In this document: piece after piece, positions 18,037 to 61,992 of the stretch
Layout of the letters: every line of letters begins with the position of its first letter
Numbering within the stretch: position 1 is the stretch's first letter
Source of the DNA: Escherichia coli
Lineage (GTDB): Bacteria; Pseudomonadota; Gammaproteobacteria; Enterobacterales; Enterobacteriaceae
Assembly: GCF_030013205.1 (NCBI RefSeq)
Contig: NZ_CP122648.1
Length of the DNA stretch: 64,000 nt
Strand: one strand, 5' to 3'
Program-made: the position numbers and the translations under genes
Notes under the pieces: model-generated
What the model was told of the DNA's origin: nothing
Database searches by the model: none
What the model saw: the letters and a program-made list of their open reading frames with translations, nothing else

Positions 18037-20106
18037 ATGTCTGAGAAAACTTTTCTGGTGGAAATCGGCACTGAAGAGCTGCCACCAAAAGCACTGCGCA
18101 GCCTGGCTGAGTCCTTTGCTGCGAACTTTACTGCGGAGCTGGATAACGCTGGCCTCGCACACGGCACCGTACAATGGTTTGCTGCTCCGCGTCGTCTGGC
18201 GCTGAAAGTAGCTAACCTGGCGGAAGCGCAACCGGATCGTGAAATCGAAAAACGCGGCCCGGCGATTGCTCAGGCGTTCGACGCTGAAGGCAAACCGAGC
18301 AAAGCGGCAGAAGGCTGGGCGCGTGGTTGCGGTATTACCGTAGACCAGGCTGAGCGTCTGACTACCGATAAAGGTGAATGGCTGCTGTATCGCGCCCACG
18401 TGAAGGGCGAAAGCACTGAAGCACTGTTGCCGAATATGGTTGCGACTTCGCTGGCGAAACTGCCGATCCCGAAACTGATGCGTTGGGGTGCAAGCGACGT
18501 GCACTTCGTGCGTCCGGTGCACACCGTGACCCTGCTGCTGGGCGACAAAGTTATTCCGGCTACCATTCTGGGCATTCAGTCCGATCGCGTGATTCGCGGC
18601 CACCGCTTTATGGGCGAGCCGGAATTCACTATCGACAATGCCGATCAGTATCCGGAAATTCTGCGTGAGCGCGGGAAAGTCATCGCCGATTACGAAGAAC
18701 GTAAGGCGAAGATTAAAGCCGATGCCGAAGAAGCGGCGCGTAAGATTGGCGGTAACGCTGACTTAAGCGAAAGTCTGCTGGAAGAAGTGGCTTCGCTGGT
18801 GGAATGGCCGGTTGTGCTGACCGCAAAATTCGAAGAGAAATTCCTCGCGGTGCCGTCTGAAGCGCTGGTTTACACCATGAAAGGTGACCAGAAATACTTC
18901 CCGGTGTACGCGAACGACGGCAAACTGCTGCCGAACTTTATCTTCGTTGCCAACATCGAATCGAAAGATCCGCAGCAAATTATCTCTGGTAACGAGAAAG
19001 TCGTTCGTCCACGTTTGGCGGATGCCGAGTTCTTCTTCAACACTGACCGTAAAAAACGTCTGGAAGATAACCTGCCGCGCCTGCAAACCGTGTTGTTTCA
19101 GCAACAGCTGGGTACACTGCGCGACAAAACTGACCGCATCCAGGCGCTGGCTGGCTGGATTGCTGAACAGATTGGCGCTGACGTTAACCACGCAACCCGT
19201 GCGGGCCTGCTGTCCAAGTGCGACCTGATGACCAACATGGTCTTCGAGTTCACCGACACCCAGGGCGTTATGGGGATGCACTACGCGCGTCACGATGGCG
19301 AAGCGGAAGATGTTGCAGTGGCGCTGAACGAGCAGTATCAGCCGCGCTTTGCCGGTGATGACCTGCCGTCTAACCCGGTAGCCTGTGCGCTGGCGATTGC
19401 TGACAAGATGGATACTCTGGCGGGTATCTTCGGTATCGGCCAGCATCCGAAAGGCGACAAAGACCCGTTTGCGCTGCGTCGTGCCGCACTTGGCGTGCTG
19501 CGTATTATCGTTGAGAAGAACCTCAATCTTGACCTGCAAACCCTGACCGAAGAAGCGGTGCGTTTGTATGGCGATAAGCTGACAAATGCCAACGTGGTTG
19601 ATGATGTTATCGACTTTATGCTCGGTCGCTTCCGCGCCTGGTATCAGGACGAAGGTTACACCGTTGACACCATCCAGGCGGTACTGGCACGTCGTCCGAC
19701 GCGTCCGGCTGATTTCGATGCCCGAATGAAAGCGGTATCGCACTTCCGTACCCTGGATGCAGCTGCAGCACTGGCGGCGGCGAACAAGCGTGTATCTAAC
19801 ATTCTGGCGAAATCTGACGAAGTGCTGAGCGACCGCGTGAATGCCTCTACTCTGAAAGAGCCGGAAGAAATTAAACTGGCGATGCAGGTTGTGGTGCTAC
19901 GTGACAAGCTAGAGCCGTACTTTGCTGAAGGTCGTTACCAGGATGCGCTGGTCGAACTGGCTGAATTGCGTGAACCGGTTGATGCCTTCTTCGATAAAGT
20001 GATGGTCATGGTTGATGACAAAGAATTGCGAATCAACCGTCTTACCATGCTGGAGAAACTGCGCGAATTATTCCTGCGCGTTGCGGATATTTCGCTGTTA
20101 CAGTAA
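18037..20106 (+). CDS. glyS: Glycine--tRNA ligase beta subunit
   Basis: 689 aa; recognised GlyS; 9-bp spacing from glyQ. Confidence 0.97.
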
Positions 20107-20120
20107 TAACGCCGTTATTA

Positions 20121-20150
20121 AAAAGCCTGCCATCTGGCAGGCTTTTTTAT
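20121..20150 (+). terminator. Intrinsic terminator of glyQS
   Basis: Stem gcctgcca/tggcaggc followed by TTTTTT. Confidence 0.6.
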
Positions 20151-20427
20151 CGCTAAATAATACAGCAACCTTTAATAATCTTCTGATGAATAAAGATTAT
20201 CTCATATATTAATTTTATGAGATTTTTTTAGGATTATATCAAGGAGAAGAAACGAACTTATTAAGCTAGAATAGCCACGGGTGCTTGAGACTGTTTGTCT
20301 CAGGTATTCACCGAAAGGCAGACAGAGAAAAGCCCCACCTAACTATAAATCAAAGTGAGGCTACCCTATGCCTGAACACCATAAGGTTAGCCTCTTACTC
20401 GTTGGAAATCAACACAGGAGGCTGGGA

Positions 20428-20580
20428 ATGCCGCAGAAATATAGATTACTTTCTTTAATAGTGATTTGTTGCACGCTTTTATTTTTCACCTGGATGATAA
20501 GAGATTCACTGTGTGAATTGCATATTAAACAGGGGAGTTATGAGCTGGCGGCATTTTTAGCCTGCAATTTGAAAGAGTAA
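20428..20580 (+). CDS. hokA: Hok-family type I toxin
   Basis: 50-aa ORF MPQKYRLLSLIVICCTLLFFTWMIRDSLCELHIKQGSYELAAFLACNLKE with an in-frame upstream extension in the ORF-track entry 20368..20580. Confidence 0.8.
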   Translation: MPQKYRLLSLIVICCTLLFFTWMIRDSLCELHIKQGSYELAAFLACNLKE

Positions 20581-20712
20581 GAGTCTTCGGCGGGAAGTTA
20601 TTCCCGCCTTTCTTACGGCGTTGCGCATTCTCATTGCACCCAAATTTATTTTTCACAAAAATAATAATAGATTTTATTACGCGATCGATTATTTATTTCC
20701 TGAAAAACAAAT

Positions 20713-20740
20713 AAAAAAATCCCCGCCAAATGGCAGGGAT
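20713..20740 (-). terminator. Intrinsic terminator of cspA
   Basis: On minus strand: stem ccctgcca/ggcgggg followed by TTTTTTT. Confidence 0.55.
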
Positions 20741-20767
20741 CTTAGATTCTGTGCTTTTAAGCAGAGA

Positions 20768-20980
20768 TTACAGGCTGGTTACGTTACCAGCTGCCGGGCC
20801 TTTAGCGCCGCTTTCGATGGTGAAGGACACTTTCTGACCTTCGTCCAGAGATTTGTAACCATCGTTCTGGATAGCAGAGAAGTGTACGAACACGTCTTTA
20901 GAGCCATCGTCAGGAGTGATGAAGCCGAAGCCTTTGTCAGCGTTGAACCATTTTACGATACCAGTCATTTTACCGGACAT
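20768..20980 (-). CDS. cspA: Major cold shock protein CspA
   Basis: 70 aa, [21 protein letters not shown]... exact recognised sequence. Confidence 0.97.
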
Positions 20981-21200
20981 AGTGTATTACCTTTAATAAT
21001 TAAGTGTGCCTTTCGGCGATATGGCGTGCTTTACAGATTTTGAAGCGTTAAAGGAATGTGCACTACGAGGGGTATCAACGATAACTCTTGAAGGGACTTG
21101 CCTTACTACACTGCTTTAATGGTCTGTACGTCAAACCGTTGACGTGCATTAAGCCACGCATTGGCGGGTGATGCAACAATTATTTTTCATATTTATGATT
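20981..21200 (-). promoter_or_regulatory. cspA long 5' UTR (about 160 nt, cold-box) and promoter with AT-rich UP element
   Basis: Minus-strand sequence ACGGTTTGACGTACAGACCATTAAAGCAGTGTAGTAAGGCAAGTCC matches the known cspA leader start; upstream AT-rich tract. Confidence 0.7.
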
Positions 21201-21260
21201 AATCGGTTGGAAAACGGTCCTGTCATCAGGACCGTAAACAGCAATAAAGTGGATAAAAGT

Positions 21261-21551
21261 CTATTCCATCAACTGCTTACTTAATGCCGGGTTGGCTTGA
21301 ATCAAACGCATCAATTTTAGTTCGGCACTTGAAGGCTTCACGCGTCTGGATTCCCATTCCTTTACCATGGCGACTGATACGCCCAAAACCCGGGCGAAAT
21401 CATCGATTTTTAATCCTGTCCCTTTTCGTAACTGCTCAATTTCGGTACAGGATGTTGTTCTGTGCGTCAGGGTAATTTTCTGCGTTTCATCTTTAAAAAC
21501 AATCTGTTCCAGGCTGCTCAACAGCTCATGCATTGGATCTTTATATTCCAT
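21261..21551 (-). CDS. yiaG: HTH-type (XRE-like) transcriptional regulator YiaG
   Basis: 96 aa; HTH motif TGLKIDDFARVLGVSVAMVKEWE. Confidence 0.9.
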   Translation of the reverse strand: MEYKDPMHELLSSLEQIVFKDETQKITLTHRTTSCTEIEQLRKGTGLKIDDFARVLGVSVAMVKEWESRRVKPSSAELKLMRLIQANPALSKQLME

Positions 21552-21984
21552 TGAAAACTCCTCAAATCACACTGCGGGATCGTGAATTGCATCGAAGCTC
21601 ATTAAGAATAGTCGGGAAAAACAGACACAGCGGGGTGTAGTCAGGGCATGCTCTGGCTATGATTCGATTCAGCCAGTCATTTAGCGTGACTTATAGCCAC
21701 CTAACGATCTGATAAATGCCGATATATCTCTTACCACTCCCGGTTTGTAAAGATTTCGAAAATCTAACGTTCTGAGAAGGCGTAAATCTCTGGCAACAAA
21801 AAAAGCAACGGCACTATCATTTTTTAACAATGAAACAACAAATTAACCTTGTTTCATTTTCTCCATGATTTTACCAGGAAGATTACGTAGAAAGGGTATC
21901 CTGCAAGCCTGTCCTGGACTATCCTTGTCACGTCAGACACGCGTGTGTCGTTGTGCGCTTTTTTTGGGTGAAAGGAGTAAGAAA

Positions 21985-22695
21985 ATGGCGACAGGAAAGT
22001 CCTGCTCTCGCTGGTTTGCGCCTCTTGCGGCGTTATTAATGGTAGTTAGCCTGAGTGGGTGTTTTGATAAAGAAGGCGATCAGCGTAAAGCGTTTATCGA
22101 CTTCCTGCAGAATACAGTGATGCGTAGCGGTGAACGTCTACCAACCCTGACTGCCGATCAGAAAAAACAGTTTGGTCCTTTTGTCTCTGATTACGCGATT
22201 CTGTATGGTTATTCTCAGCAGGTGAATCAGGCGATGGATTCCGGTCTGCGCCCGGTCGTAGACAGCGTTAACGCAATTCGCGTACCGCAGGATTACGTTA
22301 CGCAAAGCGGCCCACTGCGTGAAATGAACGGTTCTCTGGGCGTACTGGCGCAACAGCTGCAAAATGCGAAGTTGCAGGCCGATGCTGCGCACTCTGCGCT
22401 AAAACAGAGCGATGACCTGAAACCGGTCTTCGATCAGGCATTCACCAAAGTGGTAACGACGCCAGCTGATGCATTGCAACCGTTGATTCCGGCGGCACAA
22501 ACTTTCACGCAACAACTGGTGATGGTTGGAGACTACATTGCTCAGCAAGGTACTCAGGTGAGCTTTGTCGCAAATGGCATCCAGTTCCCGACTTCGCAGC
22601 AGGCAAGTGAATATAACAAACTGATTGCGCCATTACCGGCACAGCATCAGGCGTTTAATCAGGCCTGGACTACAGCAGTTACTGCAACCCAATAA
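21985..22695 (+). CDS. yiaF: Lipoprotein YiaF
   Basis: ORF-track 21865..22695 trimmed to MATGKSCSRW with lipobox LSGC (236 aa). Confidence 0.85.
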   Translation: MATGKSCSRWFAPLAALLMVVSLSGCFDKEGDQRKAFIDFLQNTVMRSGERLPTLTADQKKQFGPFVSDYAILYGYSQQVNQAMDSGLRPVVDSVNAIRVPQDYVTQSGPLREMNGSLGVLAQQLQNAKLQADAAHSALKQSDDLKPVFDQAFTKVVTTPADALQPLIPAAQTFTQQLVMVGDYIAQQGTQVSFVANGIQFPTSQQASEYNKLIAPLPAQHQAFNQAWTTAVTATQ

Positions 22696-22744
22696 AGAGT
22701 AAAAGCCCGAGCGATTATCGGGCTTTACTCCACGCAGTCGCGGC

Positions 22745-23719
22745 TTAGTCCGCGACGTGCGGATTCACACAGTTCTTCTCAACCTTTCCTTGTAACGCAT
22801 CAATCAAATTATCCACGGCACAGGCGGCCATGCCATAACGCGTCTCATGGGTGGCAGATCCAATATGCGGTACTGCGACGACGTTGGCCATTGAGAGCAA
22901 CGGCGAATCTACGGAAAGTGGCTCTTGTTCGAAGACATCCAGCCCGGCGGCGTGAATTTCCCCTTTCTGCAATGCAGCAATCAGTGCATTTTCATCAACC
23001 ACCGGGCCACGTCCGGCATTAATGAATATGGCGGAGGATTTCATTTTGGCGAATTGTTCTGCGCCAAACAGATGATGCGTTTCATCAGTTAACGGCAGGA
23101 TCAGGCAAACGAAATCTGACTCTTGTAACAGTGTATCCAAATCGCAGTAGCGGGCGTTGAAGCGTTCTTCTGCTTCTTTATGGTGGCGGCGCGCGTTATA
23201 GAGGATGGGCATGTTGAAACCAAAGTGCGCACGTTGTGCCAGCGCCATACCGATCCGTCCCATCCCGACAATGCCCAGTGTTTTATGGTGAACGTCAGTG
23301 CCGTACCAGTCCGGGCCTATGCTCGCGGTCCATTCGCCTGCTTTTACCCGTTCTGCTACCTCCACAACCCGACGAGCGGTAGACAACACCAGCGCCATCA
23401 GCGTATCGGCGACGGTTTCTGTTAATACGGTTGGCGTGTGCATCAGCAGAATTTTTCGGGCGGTAAGCGCATCGACATCAAAATTGTCATAGCCGACGGA
23501 GATCGTTGATGTGGCACGCAGTTTCGGCATTTTTTCCAGCAATGCGGCATCAACATTCTCGTTTGAACCCAGTAAACCTTCAGCTTCGGCAAAAATTGCT
23601 GCATTTTGTTCGATGGTTTGTGGGCTGAGGTTTGCCACCTGGTGAACGGTGAAATGCTCTTGCAGGCGTTGCAGTAAATCATCAGGTAAGGCTTTGTAGA
23701 GGATAACGGACGGCTTCAT
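22745..23719 (-). CDS. ghrB: Glyoxylate/hydroxypyruvate reductase B (2-ketoaldonate reductase)
   Basis: ORF-track 22745..23731 trimmed to [10 protein letters not shown] (324 aa); D-2-hydroxyacid dehydrogenase NAD motif GIVGMGRIG. Confidence 0.93.

Positions 23720-60312: not shown

Positions 60313-61992
<1,680 letters not shown>

Follow-up and report, generated by a model that had tools for sequence, protein, structure and literature searches.

The question raised by this locus is why a gene for a protein of 70 amino acids should lie behind 280 nt of non-coding DNA. In the 64,000-nt stretch of Escherichia coli DNA analysed here (the window), CspA is encoded by an intact open reading frame at 20768..20980 (minus strand; from the list of open reading frames with translation); the same gene is annotated as cspA b3556 in K-12 and is flanked, as in E. 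coli, by yiaG upstream and by hokA and glyS downstream. An earlier note on this DNA had attributed the gap to a long, temperature-sensing cspA leader carrying a cold box and preceded by an AT-rich tract, and the yiaG-cspA interval is filled in this way: the leader contributes 159 nt, the promoter and its UP-like tract about 60 nt, and a terminator-like hairpin behind yiaG lies in the remainder. With a probability of roughly 0.93, the element is the native cspA control region of an E. coli strain, its RNA part identical to that of K-12, in which a strong sigma-70 promoter composed of an UP-like tract, TTGCAT, a 17-nt spacer, TGn and CTTAAT drives a leader whose cold box would act as a re-pairing thermoswitch. 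The cspA promoter and leader are already known in full and nothing in the element is new, its sole peculiarities being a rare base at -4 of the promoter and a ‘cspE’ label given by PGAP: the mapped start, the probing of two conformers and the effects on mRNA half-life and translation come from the literature, while the present analysis supplies the identity of the locus, its family membership, the conservation of motifs and promoter, and a sequence-specific predicted temperature switch. Cold-shock expression vectors are built on the cspA leader, which is the paradigm of a cold-induced mRNA thermosensor; here, the value of finding the element intact lies in correct annotation only, as it implies a strain with the standard E. 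coli cold-shock circuitry, one that can be inferred to behave like K-12 in the cold regulation of cspA.

Identity of the locus and its transcript

An Rfam scan of 19500..23000 returned the cspA thermoregulator family RF01766 at 21140..20713 (minus strand), end to end over model positions 1-428 of 428, with 501 bits against a gathering score of 78 (E 1.4e-142). The match lies on the same strand as the cspA-type cold-shock-domain coding sequence and includes it; in the same scan the leader matched no further regulatory RNA family. The 159 nt running from 21139 to 20981 are 100% identical to the sequence upstream of cspA b3556 in K-12 MG1655, and the 561 bases of 20700..21260 depart from K-12 MG1655 by two substitutions and a one-base difference in the length of a T-run at the 3' end. 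One substitution is a G for A at 21143 (minus strand), 4 nt upstream of the transcript start; the other is a synonymous codon change, GAC/GAT, in the cspA coding sequence. Set against K-12 cspA and RF01766, the leader, cold box, upstream box, Shine-Dalgarno sequence, downstream box and terminator are thus identical, the -35 and -10 hexamers are the same, and the genomic context is shared (yiaG upstream; hokA and glyS downstream); the differences are the base at -4 (G here, A there), the single synonymous GAC/GAT codon and the hokA/sokA locus, which here carries no IS150. The alignment to the characterised cspA mRNA that had been proposed as a check therefore turns out as expected, with a leader that is identical to K-12 throughout and a family model covered from its first position to its last. 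The 561-base locus is present in 5422 of 5426 complete E. coli genomes, at an identity of at least 99% in 5345 records.

Published cspA leaders measure 159 nt (PMC6719143) or 160 nt (PMC6386945, PMC9947658) and, counted back from the ATG at 20980, place +1 at 21139 or 21140. The 5' untranslated leader accordingly occupies 20981..21139 (minus strand; 160 nt if +1 is 21140) and corresponds to RF01766 alignment positions 1-160. The earlier note had put the start at about 21132, which is 7-8 nt away and falls inside the cold box; the sequence that it quoted as the beginning of the known 5' UTR, ACGGTTTGACGTACAGACCATTAAAGCAGTG, nevertheless begins at 21139, the correct base, and its statement that the minus strand reproduces the start of this UTR is borne out. 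The cspA mRNA, 428 nt in the literature (PMC6386945, PMC9947658), ends near 20713, and an intrinsic terminator at 20716..20743 (minus strand) was found both by the terminator scan and as RF01766 model positions 401-428. Two further open reading frames were considered and rejected: a 34-aa frame at 21075..21179 (minus strand) is ruled out as a leader-encoded peptide, as it begins upstream of the transcript start, and a 140-aa plus-strand frame at 20621..21043, a candidate antisense gene, only mirrors cspA and found no support.

In NZ_CP028192.1, the exact cspA gene (20768..20980, minus strand) bears the PGAP/RefSeq label ‘cspE: transcription antiterminator/RNA stability regulator CspE’, and among the matches listed the other 14 records of 100% identity carry the same ‘cspE’ label. 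The K-12 name being cspA (b3556), the label looks like a naming error of the annotation pipeline.

Promoter and sequence motifs

The -35 hexamer TTGCAT lies at 21171..21176 and is separated by a 17-nt spacer from the hexamer of an extended -10 element at 21148..21156 (both minus strand), in which a TG (21156-21155) and one base, G, precede CTTAAT (21153..21148); from the -10 hexamer to the start there are 7-8 nt. Across 30 orthologous upstream regions, drawn from Escherichia, Citrobacter, Salmonella, Klebsiella, Kluyvera, Superficieibacter, Intestinirhabdus and Enterobacter, TTGC(A/T)T and TG-N-(C/G)TTAAT are invariant while the spacer between them varies freely, and the cold box keeps a conserved spacing from the -10 hexamer, which indirectly supports the start position; invariant hexamers around a variable spacer amount to a clear phylogenetic footprint. 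Such a footprint was used because the cspA promoter is absent from the list of a generic consensus promoter scan, which missed it because the -10 hexamer CTTAAT lacks an A at position 2. Directly upstream of the -35 hexamer, at 21177..21200 (minus strand; -38 to -61), 21 of 24 bases are A or T (0.88), the A-tract GAAAAATAA adjoining the hexamer, so that the AT-rich tract of the earlier note is found where it was said to be. The orthologues retain this character, with an A+T content of 61-88% over the tract (88% at 21200..21177), and those of other genera keep the A-tract GAAAATAA abutting the -35 hexamer. According to PMC4956666, citing Mitta et al. 1997, and to 10.1101/289264, an AT-rich UP element is required for cspA transcription. 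The tract at 21177..21200 is a putative UP element by its composition, stimulation through the RNA polymerase alpha subunit being what has been published for K-12. Beyond it, at 21211..21235 (minus strand), a terminator-like hairpin read from the sequence, ACGGTCCTG-ATGA-CAGGACCGT followed by TTTT, follows yiaG and would putatively end its transcript; it went uncalled by the consensus terminator scan because its T-run has only 4 T.

At position -4 of the promoter, 21143 (minus strand), stands a G that is rare in E. coli; K-12 and most E. coli strains carry an A there. Among about 5400 complete E. coli genomes, 22 contain the exact 61-mer with this G, and the K-12 form of the 61-mer is exact in 4341 of 5414; among the matches listed, the five genomes with the -4 G are from swine, from river water and from soil or drain sediment. 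In other genera this site is shorter by one base. That the variant alters start-site choice or the stability of the open complex, and with it basal or cold-induced CspA, is a speculative idea and quite improbable.

The cold box, GGTTTGACGTACAGACC, occupies 21121..21137 (minus strand), near the 5' end of the leader, as an exact match, with its core TGACGTACAGA at 21133..21123; it is a known component of the cspA leader (PMC6719143), and forms at 37 °C the 6-bp 5' hairpin described in PMC9411577, a hairpin present in the Rfam consensus and in the 37 °C folds. This places the cold box in the leader, as had been claimed. The 17-nt string occurs exactly once in the window, against a chance expectation of 0.07 matches with at most 3 mismatches. 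A cold-box-like match with 3 mismatches at 60317..60333 (plus strand) is taken as chance; it lies antisense inside a 549-aa open reading frame that is presumably trehalase-like. The low-temperature fold pairs the cold box with leader nt 104-118 (21023..21037, minus strand), its distal partner TCTGTAAAGCACGCC, whose core TCTGTA is invariant in 29 orthologues and was not constrained by the search pattern that found them. This segment is followed at 21005..21017 (minus strand) by GCCGAAAGGCACA, a motif that we take to be the upstream box named by Yamanaka et al. 1999; its 3-bp GCC/GGC hairpin belongs to the Rfam consensus, and the motif is kept in cspB, cspG and cspI. The Shine-Dalgarno sequence AAGG stands at 20990..20993 (minus strand), within TAAAGGTAAT, which is invariant in the orthologues. 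The downstream box ATGACTGGTATCGTA, codons 5-9 at 20954..20968 (minus strand), is part of the early coding sequence; in the cold, translation depends on the first 9 codons as well as on the leader (PMC6386945).

Predicted temperature-dependent folding and its conservation

In the proposed mechanism, the sigma-70 promoter would start the transcript at 21139/21140, with a leader of 159/160 nt. At 37 °C the 5'-terminal cold box would be held in its 6-bp local hairpin and the Shine-Dalgarno/AUG region paired with leader nt 74-96, leaving an mRNA that would be short-lived and poorly translated. Upon a shift to the cold, the cold box would re-pair with the conserved nt 104-118, about 100 nt downstream, and the resulting long run of stems would both stabilise the mRNA and free the start region for the synthesis of bulk CspA, which, as it accumulates, binds its own mRNA in a feedback loop (PMC9947658, PMC8034633). 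Two conformers and a thermosensor function have been described for cspA (PMC6386945, PMC9947658, PMC8034633); in PMC9411577, which summarises Zhang et al. 2018, the 37 °C form has the 6-bp cold-box hairpin and the 10 °C form the distal pairing with a long run of stems.

Equilibrium folding of a 187-nt fragment (the leader and 27 nt of coding sequence) predicts this exchange of partners. At 37 °C the local cold-box hairpin has a probability of 0.95 and the distal pairing one of 0.03; at 10 °C the respective values are 0.11 and 0.89, and equal energy of the two folds is reached at about 25-30 °C; the two predicted folds are the structures described in PMC9411577. When the cold box was held fixed and the remainder dinucleotide-shuffled, the switch appeared in none of 200 controls, and the observed distance of 97 between minimum-free-energy structures was reached by 4 of 200 shuffles of the whole sequence; as modelled, the predicted switch is specific to the cspA sequence. 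The fragment is no stabler than its shuffles (z = 0.07), and the unpaired probability of the Shine-Dalgarno/AUG region is nearly constant with temperature even within it.

The prediction depends on the length of the RNA. Fragments of 137-160 nt pair the cold box with nt 104-118 in an extended fold whatever the temperature, and fragments of at least 210 nt keep the local hairpin at all temperatures, with the single exception of a 250-nt fragment, which loses the hairpin and engages its cold-box bases in other pairings. In the full 428-nt RNA, equilibrium folds at 10-42 °C leave the cold-box hairpin and the Shine-Dalgarno/AUG pairing unchanged at every temperature, and a change of minimum-free-energy structure between 15 and 20 °C is limited to long-range helices between leader and coding sequence. 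Folds thus switch only when the first ~27 nt of the coding sequence are included, a modelled dependence that fits the requirement for leader plus 9 codons in PMC6386945. The temperature sensor announced by the earlier note is in this sense predicted as well as published; what does not hold is that the leader alone suffices, as those first ~27 nt are also needed (PMC6386945; folds). Its suggestion of comparing folds at 37 and 10 °C is likewise rewarded in part: the cold box of the 187-nt fragment changes partner, but the cold-box and Shine-Dalgarno/AUG pairing of the full-length RNA does not. A by-product for method is that the published re-pairing is seen in the 187-nt equilibrium fold at 10 versus 37 °C, and in neither the leader alone nor the full mRNA. 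In-vitro probing disagrees with the 187-nt prediction, as fragments of 87-187 nt were found unchanged with temperature (PMC9947658); equilibrium folding is itself blind to co-transcriptional trapping and to ribosome occupancy.

Conservation was followed with a scan of a genome collection that was anchored on the upstream box and the first codons and left the 5' part of the leader unconstrained. The cold box and AATCTGTAAAGCACGCC (leader nt 101-118) are both near-invariant among the leaders of 29 cspA orthologues, which represent about ten enterobacterial genera; leaders are 69-100% identical to the window and coding sequences 91-100%, while the 60 nt upstream reach 38-97%. The figure for the coding sequence includes most synonymous sites and is far above flanking DNA across these genera, which fits a strong codon or RNA-structure constraint that may act on the whole cspA mRNA. 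The anchor pattern also matched a metagenome bin of rumen Clostridia, and this ‘MSGKMT’ match was rejected as a csp gene and attributed to chance, the reading frame breaking down after 6 codons. Among the 28 usable orthologues, about 21 shift their predicted folding in the same direction and 7 show no predicted switch; as about one quarter of the orthologous leaders lack the predicted re-pairing, some genera might regulate cspA differently, a notion that carries very little weight.

Covariation was sought in an alignment of 30 sequences (29 distinct rows). In the Rfam consensus, 92% of cells are paired and double changes occur in 7 of 124 pairs, and in the low-temperature fold 88% of cells are paired, with double changes in 2 of 55 pairs, both counts being near the shuffle mean; the pairs between the cold box and its distal partner (helices 1-2 of the low-temperature fold) are 99-100% kept. 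Support from covariation is nearly nil because the leaders are too conserved, offering too few substitutions. Since the local and the distal cold-box pairings both consist of invariant bases, the comparative data fit both folds and prove neither.

Like cspA, the cspB, cspG and cspI genes possess long leaders, of 145-160 nt (PMC6719143). They share with it the upstream box, as GCC(G/C)AA(A/G)GGC, and the first codons, and K-12 cspB and cspG have in common with cspA a 5'-terminal cold-box core, GGTTTGA...ACAGAC. Over the cold box the alignment of the cspI leader is poor, and mean column identity is only about 64%; these are different genes, residing in prophages or at other loci. In cspB/G/I-type paralogues of other genera, a cold-box-like core was found 152-171 nt upstream of the ATG in 13 of 21 cases, against 2 of 1050 shuffles. 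More distant counterparts are the Staphylococcus aureus cspB and cspC and Listeria monocytogenes cspA leaders, which adopt two exclusive folds, the cold one permitting translation, with modulation by Csp proteins (PMC8034633); in comparison with cspA, these Gram-positive thermoswitches have no sequence similarity, use different helices and fall outside RF01766.

Alternative readings and neighbouring features

That the resemblance to cspA is coincidental, or the region a non-functional remnant, found no supporting point. Chance resemblance is excluded, being refuted by the 501-bit Rfam match, by a leader wholly identical to that of K-12 and by the presence of the locus in 5422 of 5426 genomes; the intact coding sequence and the conservation across genera also speak against a remnant.

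The remaining alternatives concern what the leader does. The cold box could serve mainly negative autoregulation at the level of transcription, CspA or another factor causing a pause or attenuation late in acclimation, and the leader would then be a feedback target rather than a thermometer. As the principal function of the cold box this reading, which reportedly goes back to papers from the Inouye laboratory, is possible but unlikely. The CspA binding sites at leader nt 12-36 do overlap the cold box (PMC9947658), the RNA reportedly does not rearrange in bacteria devoid of csp open reading frames (PMC8034633, summarising Zhang 2018), and the cold box sits at the extreme 5' end with its sequence, and not its pairing alone, conserved. 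However, the terminator scan found no terminator-like element after the cold box within the leader, and the re-pairing predicted with temperature is sequence-specific; autoregulation is moreover compatible with thermosensing, as both can act on one RNA. A leader that is mainly an instability determinant, attacked by RNases at 37 °C and yielding cold induction through slower decay with no conformational sensing, is distinctly improbable. It would account for a cspA mRNA half-life of about 12 s at 37 °C that becomes much longer in the cold (10.1101/289264; PMC9411577), and folding predicts no unusual stability for the leader fragment (z = 0.07), yet the conformers differ in 30S binding and translation in purified translation systems that contain no decay machinery (PMC9947658, PMC6386945), and the predicted switch is, here too, specific to the cspA sequence. 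Autoregulation and instability both rank below the cold-box thermoswitch, and neither is exclusive of it.

Several features lie downstream of cspA. At 20114..20180 (both strands), just after glyS, a match to the enterobacterial sRNA family STnc370 stays below threshold (44.5 bits against a gathering score of 54); this GC-rich hairpin, flanked by A- and T-runs, looks like a probable bidirectional terminator. The hokA toxin locus at 20279..20580 (plus strand) is uninterrupted and has a full-length match to the Rfam ‘sok’ family RF01794 (119.8 bits). K-12 has an IS150 between hokA/mokA and a sokA remnant, and the present strain appears to carry an uninterrupted hok/sok-type locus about 190 nt downstream of cspA. 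The small open reading frame known in K-12 as ysaE, at 20557..20628 (minus strand), is located beyond the cspA terminator and overlaps, from the opposite strand, the 3' end of hokA; in NZ_CP028192.1 it is annotated as ‘hypothetical protein’.
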